Positions 1 to 18,958 of a stretch of DNA of 64,000 nucleotides are shown here, piece by piece. Position 1 is the stretch's first letter. Every line of letters begins with the position of its first letter. Under the pieces are notes generated by a model, which saw only the letters and a list, made by a program, of their open reading frames with translations, ran no database searches and was not told the DNA's origin. A program made the translations under genes and the position numbers. The stretch is from Auanema rhodensis (Eukaryota; Animalia; Nematoda): positions 9,734,001 through 9,798,000 of the forward strand of contig OZ059895.1 of assembly GCA_964057225.1 (NCBI GenBank), read 5' to 3'.

Positions 1-350
1 TATCTTTTCCGTAACAAATGTTTTCAATTTTCAAGCACTTTTACTTAGATAGCTCAACCAAAGGAAAGCAAATTATCTTCAATTTTATTTCTATATTACA
101 GTTATAAACCAGTAGGTAATGAAACCTTCATCTTGAATTTACTGTTTCTATCTATTTCCTATCAAAACAAACATTGTTCAAACACTATGCAACTATGAAA
201 CCTTTTTTAATTTATTGTATTTGGAGCTCATAAAATTTGATATCATCGAGGGATCCAGATGGAACGTGGAAAATTACATAACTAAAATGAAATTGGAAAA
301 AAAAGTATAACAAGGATAAGTATGTTAACGACTGAATATCAGATATTTTC

Positions 351-383
351 GCTTACGACCATACCACGTTGAAAGTACGCCAT
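351..383 (+). pseudogene. Truncated 5S rRNA 5' fragment (nt ~1-33); representative copy, one per satellite monomer
   Basis: Closely matches the nematode 5S 5' end as I recall it (GCTTACGACCATATCACGTTGAATGCACGCCAT); similarity stops before the expected CCCGTCCGATC, and box A/IE/box C are absent. Confidence 0.85.
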
Positions 384-3139
384 ACAGCTGATTTTCAATT
401 TTATCTTTTCCGTAACAAATGTTTTCAATTTTCAAGCAGTTTTACTTAAATAGCTCAACCAAAGGAGAGCAAATTATCTTCAATCTTATTTCTATATTAC
501 AGTTATAAACCAGTAGTTGTTGAACCTTCATTTTAACTTTACTGTTTCTATCTATTTCCTATTAAAACAAACATTGTTTAAACACTATGCAAGTATAAAA
601 CCTTTTTTAATTTATTGTATTTGGAGCTCATAAAATTTGATATCATCGAGGGATCCAGATGGAACGTGGAAAATTACATTACTAACATGAAATTGGAAAA
701 AAAAGTATAACAAGGATAAGTATGTTAACGATTGAATATCAGATATTTTCGCTTACGACCATACCACGTTGAAAGTACGCCATACAGCTGATTTTCAATT
801 TTATCTTTTCCGTAACAAATGTTTTCAATTTTCAAGCACTTTTACTTAGATAGCTCAACCAAAGGAAAGCAAATAATCTTCAATTTTATTTCTATATTAC
901 AGTTATAAACCAGTAGGTAATGAAACCTTCATCTTGAATTTACTGTATCTATCAATTTCCTATCAAAACAAACATTGTTCAAACACTATGCAACTATGAA
1001 ACCTTTTTTAATTTATTGTATTTGGAGCTCATAAAATTTGATATCATCGAGGGATCCAGATGGAACGTGGAAAATTACATAACTAAAATGAAATTGGAAA
1101 AAAAAGTATAACAAGGATAAGTATGTTAACGACTGAATATCAGATATTTTCGCTTACGACCATACCACGTTGAAAGTACGCCATACAGCTGATTTTCAAT
1201 TTTATCTTTTCCGTAACAAATGTTTTCAATTTTCAAGCACTTTTACTTAGATAGCTCAACCAAAGGAAAGCAAATTATCTTCAATTTTATTTCTATATTA
1301 CAGTTATAAACCAGTAGGTAATGAAACCTTCATTTTGAATTTACTGTTTCTATCTATTTCCTATCAAAACAAACATTGTTCAAACACTATGCAACTATGA
1401 AACCTTTTTTAATTCATTGTATTTGGAGCTCATAAAATTTGATATCATCGAGGGATCCAGATGGAACGTAGAAAATTACATAACTAAAATGAAATTGGAA
1501 AAAAAAGTATAACAAGGATAAGTATGTTAACGATTGAATATCAGATATTTTCGCTTACGACCATACCACGTTGAAAGTACGCCATACAGCTGATTTTCAA
1601 TTTTATCTTTTCCGTAACAAATGTTTTCAATTTTCAAGCACTTTTATTTAGATAGCTCAACCAAAGGAAAGCAAATTATCTTCAATTTTATTTCTATATT
1701 ACAGTTATAAACCAGTAGGTAATGAAACCTTCATATTGAATTTACTGTTTCTATCTATTTCCTATTAAAACAAACATTGTTCAAACACTATGCAACTATG
1801 AAACCTTTTTTAATTTATTGTATTTGGAGCTCATAAAATTTGATATCATCGAGGGATCCAGATGGAATGTGGAAAATTACATTACTAACATGAAATTGGA
1901 AAAAAAAGTATAACAAGGATAAGTATGTTAACGATTGAATATCAGATATTTTCGCTTACGACCATACCACGTTGAAAGTACGCCATACAGCTGATTTTCA
2001 ATTTTATCTTTTCCGTAACAAATGTTTTCAATTTTCAAGCACTTTTACTTAGATAGCTCAACCAAAGGAAAGCAAATTATCTTCAATTTTATTTCTATCT
2101 TACAGTTATAAACCAGTAGTGAATGAACCATCATCTTACCTTCACTGTTTCTATCTATTTCCTATCAAAAGAAACATTGTTTAAACACTATACAACTGTG
2201 AAACCTTTTTTAATTTCTTGTATTTGGAGATCATAAGATTTGATATCATTGAGGGATCCAGATGGAACGTGGAAAATTACATAACTAAAATGAAATTGGA
2301 AAAAAAAGTATAACAAGGATAAGTATGTTAACGATTGAATATCAGATATTTTCGCTTACGACCATACCACGTTGAAAGTACGCCATACAGCTGATTTTCA
2401 ATTTTATCTTTTCCGTAACAAATGTTTTCAATTTTCAAGCACTTTTACTTAGATAGCTCAACCAAAGGAAAGCAAATTATCTTCAATTTTATTTCTATAT
2501 TACAGTTATAAACCAGTAGGTAATGAAACCTTCATATTGAATTTACTGTTTCTATCTATTTCCTATTAAAACAAACATTGTTCAAACACTATGCAACTAT
2601 GAAACCTTTTTTAATTTATTGTATTTGGAGCTCATAAAATTTGATATCATCGAGGGATCCAGATGGAATGTGGAAAATTACATTACTAACATGAAATTGG
2701 AAAAAAAAGTATAACAAGGATAAGTATGTTAACGATTGAATATCAGATATTTTCGCTTACGACCATACCACGTTGAAAGTACGCCATACAGCTGATTTTC
2801 AATTTTATCTTTTCCGTAACAAATGTTTTCAATTTTCAAGCACTTTTACTTAGATAGCTCAACCAAAGGAAAGCAAATTATCTTCAATTTTATTTCTATA
2901 TTACAGTTATAAACCAGTAGGTAATGAAACCTTCATATTGAATTTACTGTTTCTATCTATTTCCTATTAAAACAAACATTGTTCAAACACTATGCAACTA
3001 TGAAACCTTTTTTAATTTATTGTATTTGGAGCTCATAAAATTTGATATCATCGAGGGATCCAGATGGAATGTGGAAAATTACATTACTAACATGAAATTG
3101 GAAAAAAAAGTATAACAAGGATAAGTATGTTAACGATTG

Positions 3140-3145: not shown

Positions 3146-3183
3146 AGTAGAGAGCCGTGCAAAATTTACTAACCACGCCCCCA

Positions 3184-3299
3184 AACAGCTGTCAAAAACA
3201 TACTTTTGGGGGCGTCAGCTGCTAAAAACATACTTTTGAGGCGCGTCAGCTGTCAAAAACATATTTTTGAGCGTCAGCTGTTAAAATCATATTTTGGGA
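3184..3299 (+). repeat. Subterminal ~30-bp repeats x4 with CAGCTG core (mirrored at ~18805-18920)
   Basis: CAGCTG at 3186, 3216, 3247, 3275 in unit GCGTCAGCTGTCAAAAACATAYTTTTG. Confidence 0.9.
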
Positions 3300-3753
3300 T
3301 CATGGTTCATGGATTCTCCTTTTTTAAATTTAAAAATCATGATTTAAAGCATGATTTTTTTTTTTTTAAATCAAATTTAAATATGCTTTTTCAAATGTAT
3401 GTATATATTTTTAATTATTTTTAAATATATTAAGTAAAAATAAAAATCTTAATTTTAAATATTTAAATTATATTTAAATTTTATATATATATAAATTATA
3501 TTTAAACTTTAAATATTTAAATTATATTTAAATTTTATATATATAAATTTTATATATAAATTATATTTAAATATTTAAATATTTAAATATGTAAATTTGT
3601 TTTTTAAATTTTATTTATTTATTAAATTTATTAATAATGTTTGTTTACTTGATTTGTTTATTTTTTATTGTATTGTGTTTGTATTGTTTTTATTTTAAAG
3701 AACAGTAAAATTTTTGCATGTATATCGTTTTGTTCACCGTACTTGTTATGGGT

Positions 3754-3965
3754 AATTCAATGGAACACATATCGAAGGTTAATTCGATAAGAACGATATG
3801 AAATACAAAATTCAATGGAACACATATCGAAGGTTAATTCGATAAGAACGATATGAAATACAAAATTTAATGGAACACATATCGAAGGTTAATTCGATAA
3901 GAACGATATAAAATACCAAAATTTAATGGAACACATATCGAAAGTTAATTCGATAAGAACGACAT
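3754..3965 (+). repeat. 55-56 bp tandem repeat x4 within the left TIR
   Basis: TGGAACACATATCGAAGGTTAATTCGATAAGAACGAT at 3761, 3816, 3871, 3927. Confidence 0.93.
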
Positions 3966-4358
3966 TAAATTATTAATTTTTGAAATTACAAATTGTTATT
4001 AATTATATTTATTCTAACAAGTAAAAGTTTCAAATTATAATAAAAGATTAGTTTTAAACTTTATTTTACTAATATAACAATACAATAACTAAATAGAGCA
4101 CACATTGAAGGTAAATACAATAAGATTAAGAAACAGTTGCGCTGACCTCAATGAAACGCATAAAGTTAATTTAATAAGAACTAATAACAAAAATTAATCC
4201 GATGGGGACAATAAAAACAGATGTATTCAATAAGCTTATTTATTTTAAAGTTTATCGCAACTGCTAGTTTTGACAGCTGTACCCAAATCCATGTTACATA
4301 ACAAATTACAATGCCAACAGCAATGTGTAGACTGATATATTCATTATATCAAGGTACA

Positions 4359-7300
4359 ATGGCTGCTAATAGGTTGTGTCTTTTTGTTTATTTGTTTGTA
4401 AACTTTTTCTTTTTTCAGTTATAAACGTTTATGTGAAGAGCTAGGATTTGATTATGAAGAGATTAATCAGCTCAGGTAATTTAACAATATTTTGAATCTT
4501 TATATATATTTTGTTTTTTAGTAAACGTATAAAGTTTACCGAGGCTGGTGGGATCGAGCTCTGTGAGCCCACATCACCCACTTTTAACAGTGGGTCCTCA
4601 TCATCAAGGGTTATTGAAGTAATAACCTTGGATGACAGTGATGAGTAAGCGATATTAAAAATTATAACAATTAGTTTTTTCTTTTTAAGAGAATGGGATC
4701 CCGCTACCCCATCAACCAGTGGAGGGCAAGTCGGATATGGAGCGGCTCTCAACGATGTCTGTAAAATAGAGGTGCGATCTTTTATTTACATATCATTTCA
4801 TAATATATCTTTTGAAACATGAAATTTTCTCTTGCTCCAGTTGCATATTTTGAAAACATTTTGAAATTTATTTCTCTTTTTCAATTGCATTCATAAAATT
4901 CTCTCTTTCTCATCTTTACATTTCATCTCAATCTATATCTTTTATCAAACAAATTGCAAGTATTTTGAAATTTACATATTCATTCTTTTGAACAGCATTC
5001 ATTTTAAAATCTTTACATTTCATCTCACTATCTATCTTTCTTTCAACCAATTTTGAATTCTTACAAACTATAAATATTTCAAACATTTTGAACTAGTAAA
5101 ATAATAAAACACCATCTTGACCTTCTCATTAATTTTTAAACATTAACAAATGTTTATAAAAGTTTTTTCAAAGTTGATAAAAAAAAAATCTTTATATTTA
5201 AAAATCAAATACCTTTTAATTTTAATAAAAGAATATAAAAATAATTTAAAGAAGAGTAAATTTATTAAAAGTTATAAACAAAAATTATTTATATTTAAAT
5301 TAAAAGCGTATAACCATTATAAAAAATATGTATTATAGTGGTCACACCGACGCATAAAACGAACTGGTCGGTTCACCAACGTGGTCGTTAGATCGCTCAC
5401 GTTCCCACATTTGGAAGCCATTAATGAGCCAATGCATGTTGTCATGCCGCGGCTATTTAATGAGTTTCTTGATCGGTGCCTTGCTGAAAGTGGTGTGCCA
5501 GATAAACAAAAAGCGCTATTTTGTTTATCAATAGAGCACCCATCCTTTGAAAAGGGATCCATATTTATGGATTTCCGTAGAAGGGAGCATTTGGATGGCG
5601 TTGCCATCATGAATGCCATCAGCAAGGTGCAGCAATCAAAGCGAGAGGCTGTAATTAGCCAGGCAATGAATATTGAAATGTATGTGTTTGATGAGAGACC
5701 AGTGCAACCAAGCCTGATGCCTGGTGAAGGTAGAGTTGGTTTCTATTTTGATGCCGAACTCAAAATACCTGGCACAATTGAGAACACTGATACACATTGC
5801 CTGGCTAGAGCAGCAGTTGTGGGAATGTGGAGAGCCGATGAAGAGGCAGCAGAAGATGTTGTTGAGAAGCGGAGGATTCAAAATCTTCGTCGCAACTACA
5901 TCTTGTTGCCAAATCAACCACATCATATCAATTTATTGAATAGGTGTGGTATTTCTGTACATTTACCAAATTATAATTTGAACCATTTAAATATTATTGC
6001 AAGTTGTAATACAGACTATAAGTTTGTAGTATACGCTAGGCCACCTGGACAGCGTATGTACGCTATTCAGCGTATCTTTAATGAAACGGCTAGCAAAGTG
6101 GTAACACTAGGCTACCGAAATAATCATTATGACTGTATTACAACTTGTAGTAGATCACAGATTTTTGATGGTATTATATGCCAACACTGTAAATTATCTT
6201 ACAAAACAGTGTTGCATAGATGTAAAGCCAAGTGTAAGAAATGCCACACCTTAAAATGTAATTCGATGGAAAATGTGGTTGAAAGTAGCATAAGATGTGA
6301 TAGTTGTAGAGTTTTGTTTAAAACTCGTCAATGCTTTGACAGGCATATTAGAAAAACATGTCGAATGTTTAAGGTAATTTAAAAAATATATATAAAATTT
6401 TACAAGACTAAATTCAGACATGTGAAAACTGTGATCATTATCACAGGGTGCGTGCAGATAGACCGCACAATTGCAATGAGAAATTTTGCAAAAAGTGTGG
6501 ACAAACAAAGCCTGAAGATCATTCTTGTTGTTGGGTACCACCTAACGACAAGAAGAAGGATCAGTTAAAAAAGAGGCAAGAAAAATACAAGGTTTGTATT
6601 TTACATCTTTACAAGTGTAATGCTTACTTGTTTAAGATTATATTCTATGACTTTGAAACGGTTGTGTTAAAAAGCGGTACAAATGTTCATGAATATGCAG
6701 ATGAACAATGGCCCAATATGGTTGTGTATAATAAATTTTGTGAAAGTTGTATAGATGCCAACTCATGTGAAAAATGCACAACCAAGGAGGGCCATTTTGG
6801 GTATCAACAAGGTGATAGTGAATGGTCTGTAACAGATCGTTTCCTTGATTGGTTACTCAACTCTGTTGAGAATGATAATGCAATTTTGATTGCGCATAAT
6901 GGTTCACGCTTTGACATACATTTCTTGGTGTCTAGGCTGATAAACCGTGGTATATATCCTGATCCAATTTTAAATGGGACCAAGATTATAAGCATGGTTG
7001 TCAAGCCTTTAAGAGGTCAAAAATTTAATCATTTATATTTTAAAGATAGTTATTTATTAGTGCCTTTACCCCTATCAGCGTTACCCAAGGCATTTGGTGT
7101 ACCTGATATGAGTAAAGGACAGTTTCCTTACCTCTTTAACCATCCAATAAATTATGGCAAAGTGTTACCATCTTTACCACCAAAACAGTACTATTGTACT
7201 GCTAGAATGAAAGCAGAAGACCTAGCTTCATTCAATATTTGGTATGAAGAGCGTAATCAAAGAGCGTTTGATTTTGATGAAGAGCTTTTGGAATATTGTA

Positions 7301-9565
7301 GGACAGATGTCCGTATTTTAACCAACTGTATGAAAGTTTACATGAAGTTGGCAACCGCCACCACTGGCTGGAACCCTGTCATACAGTGTATGACATTTGC
7401 CAGTTTCTCTTTATTCCAGGCAAGTTTTTTCAAATACAAGCATTTTCAAAACTAGTATATTACAGCTGAAAATGAATCATATTAAAGAGAACCAAGTGGG
7501 TATTCTGCCCGAGACTGGTTATTATGCCGGTCAAAAGCAGAGTATAATAGCCATAAAGTATATAAAATGGCTAGAACAAGGACTGGGCCGCCCATTAATG
7601 CATAAGCTTAATGGTGGTGAATTTGCAGTGAGAGTAGATGGTCATCGCTATCTACTCGATGCTTATGACCCCGTTGCCAATCATGGCTATGAGGTGAGTA
7701 ATTTGTGATAAATGTAAAAAATTCAAATTTTTGTAGATTAATGGTTGCATTTACCATGGTTGCCCCCAGTGCACCAACAAGAGCGCTATAGCACCAGGTA
7801 GAAATGGTGAAACAATGGAAGAGGTAATTGTGACTTTTTTAATCATTTTAACTTTTAAAATTTAGGTTTATGATAAAACCATGAAAAGGCTTGAAGCAAT
7901 TCAAAGCCAAGGCATTAGTGTTACCACAGTGTGGGAGCACGAAATTAATGCTCAAATTTCGGCCAATGAAGAAATGGCGAAATTTATGCGTGAAACAAAT
8001 GTTGTTACACGCTTGGCACCTAGAGATGCCTTTACCGGTGGCCGCACCCAGACATATAAGCTTTTGGCACAAGCTTCGGATAGATACTCGCTCGAGTATG
8101 TGGACTTTTGTTCACTATATCCATATGTCACAGCCTTTGATGCCTATTACCCTGTAGGTAATCCCAAAGTTATTACTGAGGGTTTCAAAAGCTTTGAGAC
8201 ATGTTGCCCATACAAGGGGCTAGTAAAATGTGACGTGCTTGCACCCACAAATTTGCTGTACCCTGTATTAGGCACACGTATTGGCGGTAAACTTATTTTT
8301 ACAAACTGCCGCACTTGTGCAGTCAAAAGTAAAAATGTAACATGTGAGCACCAGAATGATGTAAATGCTAGAAAGCTGCATCTAACCGTGACACATGTTG
8401 AGCTCGAGTGTGCCATACAACGTGGCTATAAAGTGCTTCATGTGCATGAGGTGTGGCACTGGGAAGAATGGCAACAAGGCGGCCTGTTTAAAGAATTTGT
8501 ACAAAAGTACATCAAAATTAAACAAGAGGCGTCGGGCTGGCCAAAGCCAAACATGACAGAGGAAGAAAAGGTATGTTTTAACAAAAGTATCACATTAAAT
8601 AGAATTTTACAGGTGATTTATCTCCAAGAGCACGAGGAGAACACTGGTGTTGCTCTGGAGAGCAATAAAATTGAGAAGAATGCTGCCATGCGTAGCATTG
8701 CCAAACTGCAGCTAAATAGGTTTGTAAACTTTTTAAAACAGTACATTACAAATTTGCTTATAGTGTCTGGGGTAAAATGGGTCAAAGACCTGATAAAGCC
8801 CAAACCAAGATTATTGGTGTTGAGGACCCAGAAATTGGTAGGATCATTACTGATCCTGCAAGGGAACTCACTGGGTTCAAAATTGTGGATAATGTTGCGT
8901 ACTGCACAACAGTACCAGAGGATTCACATTTGGCACCACCGCCTTTTACAAATGTAGCTATTGCGGCCTATACAACCGCTCATGCAAGGCTACTATTGTA
9001 TAAGGCAATGGAGAAAATTGGAAAGAATTTGGTGTATACAGGTAATGTTATACTTTGTATTCAATTTAAACTTACATTATTTAGACACGGATTCACTAAT
9101 TTATCAAAGGTGCCTGGATGAGCCAGATCCAATTGAGGATATGAAGGGTGAATGGTTAGGTAAACTAACCTCTGAAATACCCGATGGTTGGTCAATGACC
9201 AAGTTTGTGTCACCAGCGGCAAAAGTTTATAGTTATAAACTTGTAAATGCAGCTGGTGATGTAAAATATGTAACAAAGGCAAAGGGAGTGGTAAGTACGA
9301 GCTTTGACTTTTCAAATAATTTTATAATTTACAGACGTTGGACCACACGGCAGCGTCAGTGGTAAACTTTGAAAGTATGGAGCGACTGGTTCGCGGTCTC
9401 GTTATGGATGGAGAGAAATTGGTTTTAAAAACCAATACGACATTGTTAAAGAGGCAACTCGGTGCCATATCCACAATGGATATGACAAAAAGTACTAGAG
9501 TCGTAATGGATAAACTTTGTTATCTACAAGATTATAGTACTTTACCCTACGGTTATTGTGAATAA
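4359..9565 (+). CDS. Protein-primed family B DNA polymerase (pPolB), spliced, predicted 1369 aa. Exons: 4359-4372, 4419-4475, 4522-4644, 4690-4771, 5339-6373, 6418-6591, 6637-7419, 7466-7693, 7737-7823, 7866-8570, 8613-8719, 8764-9041, 9085-9290, 9335-9565
   Basis: Exo I IIFYDFET, Exo II AHNGSRFD, FKDSY, KGQFPY, Exo III YCRTDV, TGGRT, motif A YVDFCSLYP. Motifs B (KLQLNS|VWGK), C (YT|DTDS) and KAKGV|TL are restored only by removing 42-46 nt introns. All phases join in frame (4110 nt). The first four exons are less certain than the rest. Confidence 0.92.
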
Positions 9566-9659
9566 TATATTTGAATTTATAAATTTTTATCTTGTATATA
9601 TTTGAATTTATAAATTTTTATCTTGTATATATTTGTATTTATAAAATTTTATCATTGTA
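9566..9659. repeat. 31-bp tandem repeat x3 in the convergent pPolB/MCP 3' intergenic region
   Basis: TATATTTGAATTTATAAATTTTTATCTTGTA at 9566, 9597 and, degenerate, 9628. Confidence 0.85.
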
Positions 9660-9733
9660 CATGTGTTTATTTTTAAAAATAGTTGTATTAATAAATTTTA
9701 TTCTTAAATCTTTTAAAGAATTTATTACATACA

Positions 9734-11068
9734 TTACAAACTGGTATCAATATATGGAGCACGATTGTTGTCAATTGAAAGAATAGAGTCATACTCTGCA
9801 TAAACAATTGCATATAAGCCCTCTTGCGGCGTTTGTTGACCAAATTCCAATTTCAAGGCTACATTACCTTGTCGTATAACATCAAATAACTCTGACGAAT
9901 GCACAGTAGGAGAAATATCAAATACAAAAAATGTGAAACCAGCTTTATACATTGCTGGTGTAATACCATTGGATGAATCTGTACGACCAAGTCCCAAACC
10001 TTCCAGCATGTCAATATATGCTGTGGCATAGGAAGATCGCCATTCTAAATTATAAGGACGGGTAGGTATTACCCTATTGTTGAGCGTCAAGTATATATTT
10101 TTCAAATCAAACGGTTTAAAGTTGAATGGCGAATGTTTAAAAGTACCATTATAAGCGTGTGCGCCGACAAGACCTACTACAACACGTTTTGGTGTATGAG
10201 ACGTGAATAATATATTATTAGGTGAATCCAAGCGGCCTCCTTCTATGAAATAAGAGCGCATTTTCACTGATGTCATGGGGTAGTGTATTCGATCCTTTGC
10301 GAGTTTATCTTCTATAGCCATAACTAATCCAGCGTTTAGATCAAACTCTTGAATGAGCAAATGTACATCGCTGATATCTACTTTCAAATTTGGAAACTCC
10401 TCCTTTAATGTAGTATCCTTGTTTTCATTATTCCAGCCTAGAGTGTCAATTAAAAAGTTATCACGGTTTGGATATGCAGTTAGCTCCATTTTTGAATAGT
10501 TTACAAACAGTCGCTCTTGATTAAATAGGTCGATACTGACGGGAGCAGCCATCTCACACAATATGCCATTTTTTACAAGCGCTTGACGCGTTCTAAATCC
10601 AGCACTGGATGCATTATCTATATATCTATCAGCATAATAGCCTGATATGGCAAGTTTGCTCTCTTTAACATCGTTGCTATACATTAAAATATTCTCGATA
10701 TATGTTTTATAGGCATGATTCACGGTAGAGTCATACACGCTAACATCACCAATTTTCAAATGATACGAATGTATTAAACTGGCAGCAAATTGTTGACATG
10801 GTGCAAAAACAAGGTTGTCTGGTACTGGATCACCGTTTGTGGTTACAATTTTAAATTTTACATTCAACCAACATCTTCTCAGATTGAGGAATGATTTGGA
10901 ATTTTGAGCTATAACAAATTCCCATGGTCCTTGAGGAAGAAAAGTATTTTTCAAAGGGACTTGTACAGTACGAGTGGATTCAACACCTAATGCCGACGCA
11001 GGTATATCACCATAGTTGATATTAGGTAAAAGGGCTTGTGCTGATTTTGAATCTATCAATTTAGCCAT
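9734..11068 (-). CDS. Major capsid protein (double jelly-roll; Polinton PY), 444 aa
   Basis: Polinton MCP-like segments: YKTYIENILMYS, PKRVVVGLV..AYNG..SPFNFKPF, Y..GFTFFVFDISP, GNVALKLEF, IVYAEY; size and context. Confidence 0.92.
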   Translation of the reverse strand: MAKLIDSKSAQALLPNINYGDIPASALGVESTRTVQVPLKNTFLPQGPWEFVIAQNSKSFLNLRRCWLNVKFKIVTTNGDPVPDNLVFAPCQQFAASLIHSYHLKIGDVSVYDSTVNHAYKTYIENILMYSNDVKESKLAISGYYADRYIDNASSAGFRTRQALVKNGILCEMAAPVSIDLFNQERLFVNYSKMELTAYPNRDNFLIDTLGWNNENKDTTLKEEFPNLKVDISDVHLLIQEFDLNAGLVMAIEDKLAKDRIHYPMTSVKMRSYFIEGGRLDSPNNILFTSHTPKRVVVGLVGAHAYNGTFKHSPFNFKPFDLKNIYLTLNNRVIPTRPYNLEWRSSYATAYIDMLEGLGLGRTDSSNGITPAMYKAGFTFFVFDISPTVHSSELFDVIRQGNVALKLEFGQQTPQEGLYAIVYAEYDSILSIDNNRAPYIDTSL

Positions 11069-11521
11069 TTAACTGTGAAACGACCGCTCACGAGTGATGC
11101 ACAACCGCTTATGAGGTTTTGTGGTTTTGCGTCGTCGCCGTTTGCCCAAGCCGGTAAGATCTCGTATAGCTTGTCGGCCGGCTGTTTTAAGAGTTTCCTT
11201 GATATTATCGCCTTTCAGCACCCCATCGACAATTTCATTACCAGTTTTCAGCAACTGTCCGCCAAGAGGTGAATTTACAACTGGACTATTGCTTACAGCA
11301 CTGGATAAGGCGTTTCTTCCGGCATTGATGAGATTTTGGGCTATAGGTGATTGAATGATGCGTGGTAGAAATGATGCCAAAGTTGCCAAAATACCACCCA
11401 AACCATGACCTCTCTGCATTCCACGTTGAAACATCATTCCGCTAAATGGGGCGCCACCCATTTGTTGATTTAAAAGTGTTGTCCATTGAATAGAGTTGAC
11501 ATCCAAAAGGAGGTGCGGCAT
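11069..11521 (-). CDS. Small basic core/membrane-active virion protein precursor (~150 aa from ATG 11521)
   Basis: QMGG and QRGHGLGG protease-site-like motifs followed by an amphipathic segment; C-terminal GLGKRRRRKTTKPHKR; stop abuts the MCP start codon. Confidence 0.75.
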   Translation of the reverse strand: MPHLLLDVNSIQWTTLLNQQMGGAPFSGMMFQRGMQRGHGLGGILATLASFLPRIIQSPIAQNLINAGRNALSSAVSNSPVVNSPLGGQLLKTGNEIVDGVLKGDNIKETLKTAGRQAIRDLTGLGKRRRRKTTKPHKRLCITRERSFHS

Positions 11522-11572
11522 ATCGAACCGCACGCGCGCAATACAAAAGTTACACTAGATCATTCTACTAAA
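11522..11572. promoter_or_regulatory. Putative compact bidirectional promoter between the core/MCP and protease units
   Basis: Divergent ATGs 51 nt apart; local CG cluster CCGCACGCGCGC; positional inference only. Confidence 0.35.
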
Positions 11573-12028
11573 ATGTATTCGTCTGAAATAGTATCACTAT
11601 TGCAATCTGTCCCCAGCACTCGGAAACTATTCCTCGGTGTATATAGCGCTGATACTCTACCCAAAACGCGTCGTAAAAACTTTGCACTTGTCGTAAATAC
11701 TGACACACATGATAAACCAGGCACACATTGGCAGGTCATCTTTGTCCGTAACAAGCAAGCCTATTTTTTCTGTAGCTTGGGATATAAAATGAACAAGTAC
11801 ATTCAAAATTATCTGGCCAAATATAAAAAGGTAAAAATTAATACTTGCAAACCACAACGTTTAATTGAATACACTTGTGGTGGCTATGTGGTCTTTGTAA
11901 TACTAATGTTGTCGGCTGGTAATTCATTTGAAAGCATTTGTTCATTTTTTAAACTATTGAAAAATGATGATGTCTTTATTAAAGCGTTTATGCATAAAGT
12001 ATTCGACTATAAATTGGCTACTATATAA
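11573..12028 (+). CDS. Adenain-like (C5/Ulp1-fold) cysteine maturation protease, ~151 aa
   Basis: FLGVYSADTLP, VVNTD...PGTHW (His), YFFCSLG, Q.....TCGGY (Gln/Cys); ATG 11573 preferred over the upstream TTG. Confidence 0.9.
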   Translation: MYSSEIVSLLQSVPSTRKLFLGVYSADTLPKTRRKNFALVVNTDTHDKPGTHWQVIFVRNKQAYFFCSLGYKMNKYIQNYLAKYKKVKINTCKPQRLIEYTCGGYVVFVILMLSAGNSFESICSFFKLLKNDDVFIKAFMHKVFDYKLATI

Positions 12029-12069
12029 GAAATTTGTCATTAATAACCTGCTACATTACGTGGTCAGTT

Positions 12070-12240
12070 ATGAATATTCCTTGTCACTGTGAATTATGTG
12101 TCAAATACACGTTGGAGCAATCTAAACCAGCGCCTTTATACAGGAGAATGTTGAAATGTATTTCAGTGCCATTTATTAAAGGTATAGCATTGGGATTGGG
12201 CTTTTGTACAACACTAGTCATATTATTGCTCATTATATAA
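12070..12240 (+). CDS. Small putative membrane protein (56 aa), N-terminal CHCELC, C-terminal hydrophobic helix
   Basis: Fills the gap between the protease and ZnF genes; ends FIKGIALGLGFCTTLVILLLII. Confidence 0.5.
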   Translation: MNIPCHCELCVKYTLEQSKPAPLYRRMLKCISVPFIKGIALGLGFCTTLVILLLII

Positions 12241-12281
12241 AAGTGGGTTGATTGCGTGTGGTCGTTTTTCATTTTCCTCTA

Positions 12282-12746
12282 ATGGAACTTTTATGTAACA
12301 AATATTGTGGTACATGCAAGGAAATATTTTCTTCAACCAAGCATTTTAGTGATCACGTTTTGAAAAGGCATGCAGGGATTCAACCCATATGTAACAATTA
12401 TATCAGCAATGCTGACTTTATTCAAAAATATGGACATTTGGATGGTGTTCGTAGACGTTTGTGCCCTCATTGTAGTGAAACTTTTGGAACAAGATTCAAT
12501 TGTGAGCGTCATATTCGGCGTATTCATAATAATAATGGAACGAATGGTGAAGATGGTGATGGAAATGATACCAGCAAACCCTTTGAAAAAGCTGAGGAGT
12601 TTGTACATTCAACCCAATCAAAAAGATGCCGCAGCAATAGTGACGGAGAACATTCACAACACGAGCCGAGCGACAAACAAAACTGCCCTAAACTATCTTT
12701 TAAACCTTCGAAAATAAAAATGTGGTATTGTATAACTGTTGAATAA
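12282..12746 (+). CDS. C2H2 zinc-finger protein (2 fingers), ~154 aa
   Basis: CGTCKEIFSSTKHFSDHVLKRH and CPHCSETFGTRFNCERHIRRIH. Confidence 0.85.
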   Translation: MELLCNKYCGTCKEIFSSTKHFSDHVLKRHAGIQPICNNYISNADFIQKYGHLDGVRRRLCPHCSETFGTRFNCERHIRRIHNNNGTNGEDGDGNDTSKPFEKAEEFVHSTQSKRCRSNSDGEHSQHEPSDKQNCPKLSFKPSKIKMWYCITVE

Positions 12747-12751
12747 AACGT

Positions 12752-13609
12752 TTATTTCATATTTTTAACATGTAATGTAACAACTGTAGAACCATAATTA
12801 AATTGCATAGGACGACCAAATTCATCTAAAATTTCAATACGTATGGTATCGAGTGTTTGTCTAGTGATTGGTACATAACGAATAGGATTAAATGTTTTGG
12901 CAATCATTTTACCAAATTCAGTAGGAGGTGGTACAGGTAAACATGCAAGTAAATTAGCTTTCACATTCCCAAGAATGGAATATTCTACAATATCACAATA
13001 TATATACATTGTATTAATGTTATTTGAAAAATCAATGGGACGCCTGGCTATTATTGTATCGTTGATGTTTTTATTTTCAAAACCAAGAAAATATGCAAAA
13101 TCATCACCAAGCGTTGCATTCATTAATAATCGCTTGCTTGTTACAAACTCTATGCGCTGCAATGTTTTGTTAAACTGAAATGTGGCATCTGCGAGCATTT
13201 CCTCCACTAGCTTAGCCTCAGCCTGGCGATTATTATACCATTTTTTTACATCTTCATCTTTATCTATTAAACTTTTTATACGTGCTTCTTCCTCAGCTCC
13301 AAGAGGCTTTGTATTGTTGGCGATAAATGATTCTCTTCCAGCATTGATTCCGCGTATTATTTCATCACCATTTGCATAGTTGCCTTTAGGCAAGTGCAGA
13401 ATAAATTTTCTATTGGAAAAACGTAGTGTATAAGATAAATCTTTTTGAACATTTAATATAGAACAAGGAAAAATGATGTCTGTCAGCCCAATACAATACC
13501 TATTATTGCGTAGCCTTAGTGTTTCAGGTAATCTGGTAAGAAACACTGATGATGTATTACTTTTTTCAGAGTCAACTGATGATGGAAGAGTAATGTAAAA
13601 ATCATCCAT
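12752..13609 (-). CDS. Minor capsid (penton, single jelly-roll; Polinton PX), 285 aa
   Basis: N-terminal FYITLPS..NTSSVF.T.LP..L.L...Y.IGL..I.FP; C-terminal MYIYCDIVE.S.LG...LL, P.RYVP, I.IEI.DEFG....F..G..VVTLH. Confidence 0.9.
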   Translation of the reverse strand: MDDFYITLPSSVDSEKSNTSSVFLTRLPETLRLRNNRYCIGLTDIIFPCSILNVQKDLSYTLRFSNRKFILHLPKGNYANGDEIIRGINAGRESFIANNTKPLGAEEEARIKSLIDKDEDVKKWYNNRQAEAKLVEEMLADATFQFNKTLQRIEFVTSKRLLMNATLGDDFAYFLGFENKNINDTIIARRPIDFSNNINTMYIYCDIVEYSILGNVKANLLACLPVPPPTEFGKMIAKTFNPIRYVPITRQTLDTIRIEILDEFGRPMQFNYGSTVVTLHVKNMK

Positions 13610-13688
13610 GACAAACCACCACTTGATACGTGTACACTATTGCAAATGAAATCATTTGCATTTTAGGTACATTTACGAGTGGTTGATT
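13610..13688. promoter_or_regulatory. Putative bidirectional promoter between the penton and ATPase units
   Basis: Divergent ATGs 79 nt apart; contains the inverted repeat TGCAAATGA-AA-TCATTTGCA and a TTTTAG acceptor-like site upstream of the ATPase ATG. Confidence 0.35.
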
Positions 13689-14336
13689 ATGGTTTTCAGC
13701 TTCAAACTACCCAGTCAGACAACTGTAATAGGTGCTACCCAATGCGGTAAAACAACCCTCATAAAGCACATATGTGAAAATACTGAAAAGTTTTTCAACG
13801 TCCCCATTGATAGAATATTCTGGTTCAGTCAATGTGGGTCATCGTCAGGTGTACCAATAAATGATGAGCGTTTAATAATTATTCAAGGGCCTCCTGATCC
13901 TGATTTGATAAAAGAACAAAAGGGAGTAAATACTATACTAGTGCTGGATGATTTGATGAACTTTTTTTCATCGAATAAAGCAGCAAAGGAATTACTCAAC
14001 AACATTTTTACAGTATGGGCTCATCACTGGAATTTGGCAGTGTTTAATCTTGTGCAAGCGGCATTTCAACTGGACAGGACCAGTCGAATCAATAGTACAT
14101 ATATAATACTGATGAAAAGTCATTCAGATATATTACAAATACGTAATTGTCTGCAGCAATTATTTGGGCCACGTTTCAAAAATGCTCTAGAGGCGTATGA
14201 TGATGCAATGTCTACTCCCTATAGTCATTTACTGATTGACAATCATCCTTTAACAAGTGAGAAGCAGCGTATACTATCTGATATAACAGCGGAGAACCCT
14301 ATTGTTTATGTTGCCAGAAATGTGTTTAGTGTTTAA
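13689..14336 (+). CDS. A32-like (FtsK/HerA superfamily) genome-packaging ATPase, ~215 aa
   Basis: Walker A GATQCGKTT, Walker B ILVLDD, AHH.N...LVQ, RINSTY, PYSHLLID. Confidence 0.92.
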   Translation: MVFSFKLPSQTTVIGATQCGKTTLIKHICENTEKFFNVPIDRIFWFSQCGSSSGVPINDERLIIIQGPPDPDLIKEQKGVNTILVLDDLMNFFSSNKAAKELLNNIFTVWAHHWNLAVFNLVQAAFQLDRTSRINSTYIILMKSHSDILQIRNCLQQLFGPRFKNALEAYDDAMSTPYSHLLIDNHPLTSEKQRILSDITAENPIVYVARNVFSV

Positions 14337-14348
14337 AGTGCTTGTTCA

Positions 14349-14657
14349 ATGAGTGGTCGTATTTTGTCAAATTTCAACTTTTTGTCTTCTTGCGCCAAAA
14401 CTCCTTGTTCTGTTTCCTCATTTTCTTTTGCACAAATTGAAATTATTGTTGAAATTGTATTTAATATTGTGAAAAATAATAATTTTCTTTTAACTAACAA
14501 GGAATATAAAACCCTCTTGCCCATATCTTCATTATTACGTCAAATAGCTTTGATACGCACACCGGAAAAGGCTAAATCATTATTGGCAACGCTTTCACAC
14601 AAACAATTGAAAACAATAGTTACATGTGGTATTGCCTATTTTGGTTTTAAATCATGA
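14349..14657 (+). CDS. Conserved small Maverick protein (PW-like), 102 aa
   Basis: EIVFNIVKNN..LT resembles the E...N.L.GN..L motif of small Polinton ORFs; ATGA overlap with next gene. Confidence 0.6.
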   Translation: MSGRILSNFNFLSSCAKTPCSVSSFSFAQIEIIVEIVFNIVKNNNFLLTNKEYKTLLPISSLLRQIALIRTPEKAKSLLATLSHKQLKTIVTCGIAYFGFKS

Positions 14658-15364
14658 AGCTCAACCATAAATATCGACTAATTCCTGTCGACGAGGAAAC
14701 AATTAATATAGACAAGTTTGATGCAGAGCTCAAGCTTTTACGAGAAAATAGAGCTATACCCGACTATAAAAAGGCTGAACTATACGAAGACTTGATTGCT
14801 CGTCTCAAAAACTATAGAGAAAGTATAGATGCGCCCATATCAGTACAAGTGGAAAATGCTGATCCACCTCTATTGCCAGAATACAAGTTGCCAAGAAAGT
14901 ATAACAATTTGTGGGAGAAATTTCCGCGCACAAACAAGAATAACCAACTTGTGATTAATAATGAGGCTGTACCAAACACGAATATTACAAAAATTTTAGA
15001 TTTTGTATTGGATAAAACAAAAACGGAACCCAATGGATTTTCAGTCTTGTCAAAGTTTTTAGCCAGTAAAGGTGTACCTAGTTCTAACAAGAAACAAACT
15101 AGAAGAGAGTCGGCTGACAATGATTCAGTTGACGTTGTAACTAGAGCTGAACCGGCTGTTACAGACTTGGACTCTACTATATTACCTAGAACGCCTCGTC
15201 ATCGTAAAGCTGTTATTAGATATTCACCATCACCGGTTCGTACACTCAAAAGTAAAAGGTCAAAGACTTTTGATACTGCCGCCGAATCATATTACACACC
15301 ACAAGAAGGAGACTCACAGAATGGCCAAGGTCGTAAAAGGTTCTACATTAGATTATGGAAATGA
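14654..15364 (+). CDS. Conserved Maverick protein of unknown function (PZ-like), 236 aa
   Basis: KYRLIP, D.EL..L.....PD..K..LY..L, INNEAVPNTNI..ILD, P.GF; basic SP/TP-rich tail ending QNGQGRKRFYIRLWK. Confidence 0.7.
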   Translation: MKLNHKYRLIPVDEETINIDKFDAELKLLRENRAIPDYKKAELYEDLIARLKNYRESIDAPISVQVENADPPLLPEYKLPRKYNNLWEKFPRTNKNNQLVINNEAVPNTNITKILDFVLDKTKTEPNGFSVLSKFLASKGVPSSNKKQTRRESADNDSVDVVTRAEPAVTDLDSTILPRTPRHRKAVIRYSPSPVRTLKSKRSKTFDTAAESYYTPQEGDSQNGQGRKRFYIRLWK

Positions 15365-16388
15365 TATTTTGGCGAGCATTTATTACGATATAAAACATCC
15401 AGCTTCATATACATCAGCCAAGAATTTATTATCGCAAGCACGAAAACATGGCATTTCAAAGGTACAAGTTGATGATTTTTTGCAAGATTCTGAAACTTTT
15501 ACACGACATAAACCAACCAGAATGCGTATGCAGACTAGAAAGACTAGAGGATGTGGTCGATTTCTAACAGTGCAAGCAGATTTGGTTGATATGCAAAAAT
15601 ATAAAAAATTAAACGACGGCTATGCTTACATGTTGACCATGATTGATGTTTATACACGCATGTTATATGTTAGGCCTTTGAAAACTAAAGGTGGTATAGA
15701 GGTTGCTAGTGCATTTGAAAATTTATTCAAGAATTTTATACCAATTCAGTTGATTACTGATAATGGCACAGAGTTTTATAATAGTCATTGTGAAAAACTA
15801 TTCAAAAAGTTTGCCATACTGCACGGATCTACAAGTTCACCTCAAAAGGCTGCAATGGTGGAGCGAGCAAATAGAACTTTAAAAACACGCATGATGAAAT
15901 ATCTCTATTACAAGAATAATCATCGTTGGATTGATATCCTAGATGATTTGGTTGAAGGAATAAACAAATCTTATAACCGCTCCATAAAAATGCGGCCCAT
16001 TGATGTTAAAGCAAATATATTCATTGAAGAATATGCATCAGCTGTTAAAAGCCGCTTTAAAATTGGTGATACTGTTCGCATAAGCAAAAATAGGCGTACT
16101 TTTGAAAAAAGCTACGAGTCTGGATATACAATGGAGCTATTCACAATTGATGAGGTTGTAACCGGAAACCCAACCGTGTATAAACTTGTAGATTATAATG
16201 GTGAACGTATAAAGGGAATATTCTACGAACCTGAACTTGTCTTGGCTACTAATAAAAGCAACCAGTACTATATAGAAAAAGTTTTAAAAGAGCGTACTCG
16301 AAGCGGTAAACGTCAAGTATTTGTAAAATGGAGTGGATACCCCGACAACTTTAATGAATGGATAGATGCAGAAAATTTAAATGTATAA
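15321..16388 (+). CDS. Retroviral-like (RVE) DDE integrase with C-terminal chromodomain, ~355 aa
   Basis: IYYD..HPASY, QADLVDM (D), ITDNGTEF (D), MVERANRTLK (E), FKIGDTVRI, FY..EL, chromodomain YYIEKVL...VKWSGYPDNFNEWI. Confidence 0.95.
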   Translation: MAKVVKGSTLDYGNDILASIYYDIKHPASYTSAKNLLSQARKHGISKVQVDDFLQDSETFTRHKPTRMRMQTRKTRGCGRFLTVQADLVDMQKYKKLNDGYAYMLTMIDVYTRMLYVRPLKTKGGIEVASAFENLFKNFIPIQLITDNGTEFYNSHCEKLFKKFAILHGSTSSPQKAAMVERANRTLKTRMMKYLYYKNNHRWIDILDDLVEGINKSYNRSIKMRPIDVKANIFIEEYASAVKSRFKIGDTVRISKNRRTFEKSYESGYTMELFTIDEVVTGNPTVYKLVDYNGERIKGIFYEPELVLATNKSNQYYIEKVLKERTRSGKRQVFVKWSGYPDNFNEWIDAENLNV

Positions 16389-16683
16389 TTTTTCAATGTT
16401 ATAAACAATTGTAATTATAATAAATGATTTATTTGATATATCGCATAATGTAACAATAAAAAACCAGCAAAATACAAACAACAATTCAACCTGGAAAAAA
16501 AAAATGTAGACTATTCAAATTTTCAAATTCTTACCAGTTGGTTGATCATTCGTCCTCAATTGATGAGCCATTGATGGATATTCGCAAGAGCTGGAAAAAA
16601 AAAATGTTACGGCTGAGAATATAAAAATGCCACATAACAAAACAAGAATAAAACGCCAATTGTACTATTTGTGCTTGTTGTAG

Positions 16684-17268
16684 TCAAAATGAAGGATCAA
16701 AGCGGATAAACATGTTCAGGTTGAGTGCTTCTGGACTTAGTTTAAAGTAGAATACATTCTGCTTATAACCAAAAGTCTTTATAGTAGCCTCATCTGCATA
16801 TATAACAATATAGCCCATATTGTTCAACAATTGCTTGCACGTCATGGTGTTATAAGAGCGCATCTAAAAAATGATAAAATTGAAAATAAATAAATATGCA
16901 AGCTTACATTAATAGAGAACTTTTCGGGCTTATAGTGACAAAACTCCTTCAAAAGACCCAACGCATCATTCCTTCCTCTACACTTTATACAGAGGCTGAA
17001 ACAGTGATACTCGTCTATAACCTGCAATGATTCCCTACAAGTTTTGCAGAGACAAATTGGTCTCATTAATACACTCCTTGGTGGAGTGCTCTCTCTCAGA
17101 ATCTCCATCTGCTTTATTGGTGAATCTAAATTAAAGATTTAATAAATACAAGTTAAGGTTCATACCAAAACTTGTAAAATTTGGAGCTGGTGTGGGTGGT
17201 CGTGGTACTTCAGGTTCAGGCGATTTGCGCACAACATTTGTCACATCAGCAAGTACAGCACGCTTCAT
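16684..17268 (-). CDS. Spliced accessory protein, predicted 166 aa (exons 17268-17166, 17125-16908, 16863-16684): D-box, Pro-rich/CDK sites, Cys4 finger
   Basis: GTATG..TTTAG (40 nt) and GTAAG..TTTTAG (44 nt) introns join in frame: MKRAVLADVTNVVRKSPEPEVPRPPTPAPNFTSFDSPIKQMEILRESTPPRSVLMRPICLCKTC...CFSLCIKC...; the 3' end is less certain. Confidence 0.7.
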
Positions 17269-17890
17269 TTCCGCTAAAGATCCAACTTTCTAAAATATAA
17301 GGCAAACTTGCAGAGAGGAGCAGTCTATGGCGATTGGCAAAGAGTGGCAGGAGATGGTGAAACGTCGGATCCTCGGATAGTTGGCAGAGCTGAAATGTAA
17401 ATGTAGCAAAATTGCCAACCTTTTATACAAAGATTTTTGTAAAGTACAACCCATTGTGTTACAATCAAGTTTGCTGATGAAATTCTTTTATTAATTAGAT
17501 TTTACAGCATATTTATGCAGATATACTCATCTCGTCGACAGTTGCCAGCAGTTGGCGCACTCTGAACCTGTAAACAATCTGCATATTAATTAGTTTTTAC
17601 ATCTCTTTAAACATTATTGTTTACCGTTTGTGCCATAAACAACAGCCATCTCTGTAAAACATTTAGGCTTTTTAAACTTTGCTTAATAGCTCATATATTA
17701 TTCATAGTATACTTTTACACCCATATTGTAGCACAAAACATATGACTGCCAACGTTTTATATGTAAAAATATTTCATTCTTGAATATTTAATAATGGTTA
17801 TATTACGAAACTAAAACTTTTGAAATGTTAAAATGATTATACTATATTTAAACCCCCACAGTGCAGTTATTACTGTTTATTAACCATCGA

Positions 17891-18958
17891 TATGCGTGGC
17901 GTTGAGGTCAGCGCAACTGTTTCTTAATCTTATTGTATTTACCTTCAATGTGTGCTCTATTTAGTTATTGTATTGTTATATTAGTAAAATAAAGTTTAAA
18001 ACTAATCTTTTATTATAATTTGAAACCTTTACTTGTTAGAATAAATATAATTAATAACAATTTGTAATTTCAAAAATTAATAATTTAATGTCATTCTTAT
18101 CGAATTAACCTTCGATATGTGTTCCATTGAATTTTGGTATTTCATATCGTTCTTATCGAATTAACTTTCGATATGTGTTCCATTAAATTTTGGTATTTCA
18201 TATCGTTCTTATCGAATTAACTTTCGATATGTGTTCCATTAAATTTTGGTATTTCATATCGTTCTTATCGAATTAACTTTCGATATGTGTTCCATTGAAT
18301 TACCCATAACAAGTACGGTGAACAAAATTATCTACATGCAAAAATTTTATTGATCTTTAAAATAAAAACAATACAAACACAATACAATAAAAAATAATCA
18401 AAATAAGTAAACAAACATTATTAATAAATATAATAAAGAAATAAATAAAATTTAAAAACAAATTTATATATTTAAAATTTAAATATAATTTATATATAAA
18501 ATTTAAAGTTTAAATATAATTTATATATATAAAATTTAAATATAATTTAAATAATTAAAGTTTAAATAAAATTTATATATATATAAAATTTAAATATAAT
18601 TTAAATATTTAAAATTAAGATTTTTATTTTTACTTAATATATTTAAAAATAATTGAAAATATATACATACATTTGAAAAAGCATATTTAAGTTTGATTTT
18701 AAAAAAAAAAAAAAAATTTAAAAAAAAAATCAAAAAAAAAAAAAAATCATGCTTTAAATCATGACTTTTATATTTAAAAAAGGAAAATCCATGAACCATG
18801 ATCCTAAAATATGTTTTTGACAGCTGACGCGCCCCAAAAATATGTTTTTGACAGCTGACGCGCCCCAAAAGTATGTTTTTAGCAGCTGACGCCCCCAAAA
18901 GTATGTTTTTGACAGCTGTTTGGGGGCGTGGTTAGTAAATTTTGCACGGCTCTCTACT
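17891..18958 (-). repeat. Right terminal inverted repeat (~1.07 kb)
   Basis: Reverse complement of left TIR, with indels in A/T homopolymer and AT-only tracts. Confidence 0.95.
18085..18301 (-). repeat. 56 bp tandem repeat x4 within the right TIR
   Basis: GTTCCA at 18121, 18177, 18233, 18289; reverse complement of the left-TIR repeat. Confidence 0.93.

Follow-up and report, generated by a model that had tools for sequence, protein, structure and literature searches.

A transcribed and spliced cargo gene with a D-box-like motif and a frame-shifting coding intron in a Maverick/Polinton element of Auanema rhodensis

The locus described here raises a twofold question: does the slot between the integrase and the right terminal repeat of a nematode Maverick/Polinton element hold a genuine gene, and would the product of such a gene be read by the cell-cycle machinery of the host? 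A first-pass annotation of 64,000 nt of Auanema rhodensis DNA (contig OZ059895.1, positions 9,734,001–9,798,000; hereafter the window) had proposed a hidden spliced accessory gene whose product combines a destruction box (D-box), CDK sites and a Cys4 finger. Cargo genes of nematode Mavericks have been described as intron-bearing, lodged between terminal repeat and integrase in a region of 2–5 kb with high GC (bioRxiv 2022.07.12.499685), and those named in the available text of that work are wasp proteases and krma kinases (bioRxiv 10.1101/2022.07.12.499685). Uncharacterised ORFs in nematode Polintons are mentioned in the available portion of PMC10748475, which does not describe such a gene there. 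Among the papers listed in our survey of open-access text, none reported a D-box in a Polinton; supplementary gene tables of the nematode Polinton papers could already list this ORF.

The carrier element and its cargo slot

The stretch from 3146 to 18958 (15,813 bp; termini AGTAGAGAGCCG) is a Maverick/Polinton element, with PolB, an integrase, long terminal inverted repeats and a 6-bp target-site duplication (AATATC). Its insertion site is a 401-bp satellite, about 120 copies of which lie in the window, at 1–3139 and 18965–64000. The terminal repeat adjoining the cargo gene (17891–18958) is partnered by 3146–4162, each being about 1 kb long; both contain a palindromic stretch of A and T alone as well as tandem copies of a 56-bp unit (18074–18301 and 3754–3970, respectively), the two ends having different numbers of this unit. 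Pfam profiles recovered pieces of a protein-primed PolB (PF03175), an integrase (PF00665) with a chromodomain (PF00385) and an ATPase, while an adenoviral-type protease match at E 0.001 fell just under the cut-off. The integrase with its chromodomain occupies 15321–16388 on the plus strand, convergent with the cargo gene; among the matches listed (the best 120 of 445), its closest named relatives come from Auanema sp. (69% over 59% of the query) and Caenorhabditis. These relatives and the intron lengths of 40–44 nt point to a probable rhabditid host.

Several other features of the element deserve mention in their own right. ORFs 9734 and 12752 gave no match in profile libraries, Pfam included, and have relatives beside integrases in other loci (L003 and L014); they are presumed capsid genes, so labelled from size and position only. 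PolB (5339–9565, plus strand) falls into five or more separate open frames, as would be expected if it had several short introns, and none of its splice joints was seen in the RNA-derived contigs of the five sequencing runs introduced below (X1–X5), which leave most core genes uncovered. Upstream of it, at 4420–4770 on the plus strand, short exon-like stretches lie between 40–45-nt AT-rich GT–AG gaps; they could belong to PolB as 5' exons or form an additional accessory gene, and the region had no contig cover in the five runs. One of these stretches encodes a hydrophobic-then-acidic run that, as we take it, resembles a SUMO-interacting motif. The core also contains a C2H2 zinc-finger ORF (12282–12746, plus strand), represented by contigs in X1, X2 and X4, of which one has indels. 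A fusogen of roughly 870 aa has been reported as typical of Caenorhabditis Mavericks; on ORF inspection, no long ORF fit for such a protein was found within 3146–18958, the only candidate being a frame of 64 codons at 12084–12278 on the minus strand, one end of which is hydrophobic.

The slot between the integrase and the right repeat measures 1,502 nt and has a GC of 0.33, against 0.37 in the element core. The gene that it holds resembles the known nematode Maverick cargo in its slot, its short introns and its nematode-type carrier, but differs in being confined to 1.5 kb at that low GC, in encoding neither a protease nor a kinase, in having no host homologue that our searches could find, and in combining degron-like motifs with a frame-shifting coding intron.

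Transcripts, gene model and relatives of the cargo gene

Transcript data consisted of contigs from five public runs that hold part of the stretch, at depths of 2–7. X1–X4 belong to one study, for which the label 'RNA' is a guess, and X5 is a metagenome run of a second study; X1–X4 contain spliced molecules, as the GT–AG joints in their contigs attest. Four GT–AG joints of the cargo gene are present in these RNA-derived contigs, including both splices that the first-pass annotation had predicted, and its hidden accessory gene is thereby borne out: the cargo gene in the Maverick is real, it is spliced, and near-identical copies of it are transcribed. At a few places the contig sequences depart from that of the window; their source may therefore be a sister copy or another strain, and the exact copy in the window may be silent.

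On the minus strand, an ATG at 17268 opens a three-exon frame of 166 aa when a 43-nt intron is retained. Coding exon 1 (17166–17268) supplies the start codon, the D-box and the sites SP16 and TP26. It is followed by intron 1 (17126–17165; 40 nt, GT–AG, GC 0.20), whose predicted junction 17166/17125 is spliced in X1 and X4 and is implied in X2 by 15 nt of exon 2 left as a loose end. Exon 2a (17039–17125) contributes SPIK, TPPRS and the first finger cysteines and leads into the exitron-like intron (16996–17038; 43 nt, GT–AG, GC 0.42), spliced in X1 and X2. Exon 2b (16908–16995) provides the second CxxC if that intron is retained and a stop at its very start if it is spliced. Intron 3 (16864–16907; 44 nt, GT–AG, GC 0.18) was again placed correctly in the first pass, the junction 16908/16863 being found in X1, X2 and X3, and the last coding exon (16684–16863) comprises 59 codons. 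The original three-exon model is thus right about both of its introns and overlooked the 43-nt intron inside the finger.

The features of the untranslated flanks likewise lie on the minus strand. Downstream, a 44-nt intron in the 3' untranslated region (16491–16534) occurs in X1 only, and an AATAAA at 16428–16433 is a putative polyadenylation signal, the X1 contig ending at 16445. Upstream, a TATA-like TATAAAAG at 17420–17427 is a candidate promoter element; no ATG lies between 17400 and the cargo start codon, and contigs reach 17381 in X4 and 17468 in X3. A 54-codon upstream frame (17290–17453) is in phase with the cargo gene, and its TAG belongs to a TTTTAG that resembles an acceptor, lies 21 nt upstream of the start codon and could serve in trans-splicing or as an alternative acceptor; the contigs cross it unspliced. 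At the other end, the last-exon frame stays open for 45 codons beyond the stop (16546–16683), a region with a variable T run and an acceptor-like CAG at 16591 that is still alignable in a diverged copy. Read-through of the stop codon was considered for this region and rejected, because the length of the T run differs by one base in X5 and by two in X1.

The runs also contain relatives of the gene. A second version of the transcript, about 82% identical, is present in the same organism, in X1 and X4 (16585–16833, 17039–17073 and 17187–17217), and a third relative occurs in the metagenome run X5, so that the cargo gene is, on sequence similarity, a small family. Beyond the runs, the cargo exons had no match in Pfam, PHROGs, NCBIfam or PDB sequences. 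An exact search for the cargo sequence returned 0 of 4, and pattern searches returned 12 and 25 stretches, none of which was confirmed. Of the single-exon homologue searches, one gave no candidate and another gave three, none at E <= 1; two matches in the single-exon searching were set aside as tandem-repeat artefacts. In the ESM Atlas, exon 2 drew unnamed bacterial clusters at 0.92–0.94, which we discarded with the recognition value below the useful level, and the last exon drew no match. These searches, run with single-exon queries of lowered sensitivity and on collections other than eukaryote genomes, thus found no homologue of the cargo protein, host or other. Viral and metagenome contigs yielded no close relatives of the Maverick itself: integrase relatives there came in sets of 2 and 12, all at 35–42% integrase identity, and the cargo gene and its extended D-box are absent from the 14 integrase-bearing loci examined.

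The 43-nt intron, the finger and the last exon

The segment at 16996–17038, bounded by GT and TTTCAG, is skipped in X1 and X2, two of the four runs that reach it. As 43 is not a multiple of three, its removal truncates the product: the middle of the finger is lost, the frame shifts and the protein ends at 66 aa, retaining the D-box and four S/T-P sites and, of the finger, only C59 and C61. The Cys4 finger announced in the first pass therefore survives conditionally; CxxC-x15-CxxC (C61, C64, C80, C83) is present in the 166-aa frame, which needs retention of the 43 nt, and absent from the molecules spliced in X1 and X2. The reading frame of the last exon, too, is joined to the start codon only if the 43 nt are retained.

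In composition the segment is like the exons, with a GC of 0.42 (exons 0.36–0.47) as against 0.18–0.23 in the other three introns, and it has no stop in the retained frame. The diverged relative in X5 crosses it unspliced with 83 of 96 positions alike, only 8 nt of them on the upstream side; among the three differences listed, two are silent and one exchanges Ile and Val, one silent change falling inside the intron. A contig of X4 has intron 1 spliced and then runs 29 nt into the 43-nt intron, where the bridging rule is 31 nt, and may represent a partly spliced precursor. For the near-identical copy, no contig in X1–X5 bridges the whole retained intron, X3 stopping short of it. In the diverged transcribed copy, the alignment ends exactly at the donor (17039), which is compatible with a shared splice. 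We read the segment as an exitron-like intron that is also coding, for which the evidence of retention is partial. Exitrons, as characterized in the accessible text of PMC10985678, are coding when retained, have exon-like GC and functional GT–AG ends, and usually have a length that is a multiple of three; the segment here is likewise stop-free, exon-like in GC and spliced at GT–AG ends in some transcripts, but departs from them in its length and in sitting in a transposon gene.

Structure prediction was applied to the retained segment and to the last exon separately. From single sequence, AlphaFold modelled the retained segment as a hairpin–helix–helix–strand unit (mean pLDDT 72; two of five models in agreement), with a predicted pLDDT of about 82 around the cysteines at model residues 21–50, and the last exon alone as a small alpha/beta unit (pLDDT 81 in the best of five models). 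Fold searches with each gave no significant structural match, a result that establishes neither a novel fold nor an absence. The best, non-significant match of the retained segment was a viral zinc finger (Z 3.9, rmsd 2.1, 44 aligned), and the Emi1-type zinc-binding region was not among its matches. The finger body would bind zinc, and one might guess from the finger at a nucleic-acid or protein-binding role for the body of the protein.

The last exon offers a further line of evidence. The diverged transcribed copy (X1 record 7, X4 record 22) has 44 differences in 249 nt. Within the last exon, 11 of the 18 differences listed for 16702–16801 are silent, where 4.6 are expected (P 0.0002), and the same 18 give only 4 and 1 silent changes in the other two frames. 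This bias indicates purifying selection on the last exon in the very frame that retention joins to the start.

These observations bear on a competing account of the segment, in which it is a constitutive intron, the gene yields two products, a 66-aa peptide and an independent C-terminal protein (from the last-exon ATG or from an unseen 5' exon), and the finger is never made. Its clean removal in X1 and X2, its consensus TTTCAG acceptor, the predicted ability of the last exon to fold on its own and the presence in fully spliced RNA of a second frame, open for 117 codons into a last exon that begins with ATG, all speak for this account. That second frame, however, runs into a stop at the intron-1 joint and offers no ATG upstream of the last exon; the segment is exon-like both in its GC and in how well the X5 relative conserves it; in X4, a molecule already spliced at intron 1 continues into the 43 nt; and the retained frame produces a regular CxxC-x15-CxxC with a confidently predicted fold. 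We rank constitutive splicing as the least likely of the explanations considered, and as very improbable.

Adenovirus E1A is also produced in splice forms with and without its finger. The splice here, by contrast, truncates by frameshift. The comparison with E1A drawn in the first-pass annotation extends to the paired CxxC and stops at the LxCxE motif, which a motif scan did not find in the cargo protein. The accessible text of PMC8502044 describes the Oncoid proteins of adintoviruses as accessory proteins with a motif and CxxC, typically encoded upstream of PolB. Like Oncoid and E1A, the cargo product is a small accessory protein, here of a Polinton, with short linear motifs beside paired CxxC; unlike them, it has a motif of the APC/C degron type and lies at the opposite end of the element from PolB. 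Its assignment as an Oncoid was ruled out on the missing LxCxE and the wrong end of the element.

The degron-like tail and how it may be read

The exon 1 start foreseen in the first pass, MK-RAVLADVTN, is present, with the D-box-like motif RAVLADVTN at 17236–17262 on the minus strand (residues 3–11), flanked by lysines 2 and 15. The announced SP/TP sites are likewise in place at 16, 26, 36, 48 and 150, the full CDK sites being SPIK and TPPR. By composition, the first 55 residues (10 Pro, 9 Ser/Thr, a low hydrophobic share) form a proline-rich tail, exon 1 lying outside the fold predictions, and the density of S/T-P in the tail is marginal (P 0.049). Against a consensus drawn from 68 D-box substrates, given in the available text of PMC3690534 as R1, L4, D/E6, V/I/L7 and N9 with small residues at 3 and 5, RAVLADVTN fits P1, P4, P6, P7 and P9 and has a small residue at 5, its Val at P3 being off the A/P/S preference (PMC3690534). 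It equals the Hsl1 D-box at six of nine positions (PMC12401543); the same source, as far as its available text goes, reports Val at P7 as the weakest aliphatic in peptide binding tests. A second candidate degron, T48-P-P-R-S52, fits the Fbw7-type rule of pT-P with a serine at +4, with a shuffle P of 0.004–0.07 depending on pattern and span, and its Arg at +3 is a residue disfavoured for Cdc4-type binding (PMC1802738, available text).

How surprising the D-box is depends on how it is phrased. The loose RxxLxxxxN has a P of 0.67 in the shuffled element proteome and is unsurprising. The extended RxxLx[DE][IVL]xN, a pattern chosen after the motif had been seen, has a P of 0.00125 in the protein, 0.00025 in its first 40 residues and 0.025 in the 3,595-aa element proteome; it occurred in 0 of 122 fetched proteins and not at all in 239,132 six-frame residues of the 14 integrase-bearing loci. 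Conservation says little here, as the diverged copy aligns over only 66 nt of exons 1–2a (residues 18–28 and 52–64), which does not include the D-box; this weighs little as an objection to the motif, since that copy is also unaligned over exon 2b, which is nonetheless kept in the X5 relative. We regard the D-box as a good match in a plausible setting, namely an N-terminal position, a proline-rich tail and nearby lysines.

It could still be that the cargo gene with its zinc finger is real while the D-box is a coincidence and the 43-nt splice a case of host mis-splicing at sites that the coding sequence contains by accident, with no cell-cycle role. This is one motif among many possible types, picked post hoc, for which a P of 0.025 per element is not small across many windows, and the diverged-copy alignment supplies no evidence of D-box conservation. 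Cryptic introns can, moreover, arise: in the 6,303 nt of element ORFs that lack introns, TTTCAG is present three times, and in one of these cases donor-like sites lie at the spacing of an intron. Against coincidence stand the placing of the motif, N-terminal in a proline-rich tail near two CDK sites and an Fbw7-type site and rare by shuffling within the first 40 residues, and the end of the diverged copy's alignment at the 17039 donor, compatible as it is with a shared splice. On balance we consider coincidence unlikely, although it is the main rival explanation.

If the motif is functional, it may mark a substrate or disarm its reader. In the latter case, the tail, above all as the 66-aa product, would be a decoy: by tying up APC/C coactivators and Fbw7/SEL-10, it would keep host cells in an S/G2-like state from which the element profits. 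The best-seen RNA form (X1, X2) keeps all the linear motifs and drops the folded part, as a decoy would have it. Viral targeting of APC/C has also reportedly been described in a 2026 adenovirus preprint. The early stop in the spliced RNA, on the other hand, may route that RNA to decay, which we count against a decoy, and the flanking lysines favour a substrate. In the accessible portions of the respective papers, viruses target APC/C (PMC3390409) and SV40 large T has a decoy Fbw7 degron (PMC1802738), but known pseudosubstrates are multivalent (Acm1 has an A motif, a KEN and a D-box; PMC3690534), and single D-box peptides bind Cdc20 at micromolar levels (PMC12401543). The cargo protein has a single D-box and, on motif scan, no KEN; its one ABBA-like match, at residue 126, falls in a predicted strand and outside the 66-aa form. 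With one coactivator motif and no fold match, the Emi1-like decoy put forward in the first pass finds no backing, and we hold a decoy of any kind to be improbable.

With the substrates and pseudosubstrates Hsl1, Acm1 and Emi1, the cargo protein shares CDK sites and the residues R1, L4, D6, V7 and N9, all in a tail predicted to be disordered; it differs from them in its single motif, in lacking KEN and any sequence or fold link, and in being encoded by a mobile element. Viral regulators of APC/C named in the available text of PMC3390409 include HPV E2, PACR, apoptin and pUL21a, and bovine papillomavirus E1 is reportedly an APC/C substrate. The cargo gene would resemble these as a virus-type element with an APC/C handle, but their ways of acting on subunits or coactivators are different, none named there comes from a Polinton, and we found no homology.

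We favour the substrate reading, in which the full-length product is a short-lived, cell-cycle-timed target of APC/C and splicing of the 43 nt is its off-switch; we give it a little less than an even chance. A predicted floppy tail of 55 residues, with the D-box and CDK-type sites, would precede two further parts, a predicted zinc-binding domain and a second, small one without known family. Host APC/C, with Cdc20/FZY-1 or Cdh1/FZR-1, would read the tail, and Fbw7/SEL-10 might also do so once TPPRS is phosphorylated; a protein read in this way would accumulate in S/G2 and disappear in late mitosis and G1. The 166-aa form would be made only on retention of the coding intron, and the 66-aa tail-only product would most likely represent an off-state by which the amount of full-length protein is kept down. 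Degron function, zinc binding, the translation of either form and a target of the folded part are what we infer here, and a tie to Maverick replication, suggested in the first pass, is hypothetical.

Taken at its strongest, one cargo gene would give rise either to a novel zinc-finger effector with a lifetime set by APC/C and Fbw7 or to a degron-only decoy peptide, would plug a nematode Maverick family into the host mitotic clock, and would be the first gene of a Polinton to combine an APC/C degron with an effector/decoy splice switch. We think it improbable that all of this holds. The new cargo gene is real, its gene model is corrected and its degron is plausible. In the main nematode study, transcription of Maverick genes was not detected in its element; here, RNA reveals transcription and splicing of the cargo gene in three or more diverged versions, and its last exon shows the signature of selection. 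The frame-shifting coding intron would be a simple control point of such a gene. Should the D-box be there by chance, a new orphan cargo family would remain, with two predicted small folds that have no matches. Should it work, the motif-plus-finger accessory proteins of small DNA viruses would extend from Rb binding to APC/C, and a Polinton would have a direct handle on the cell cycle of its host.
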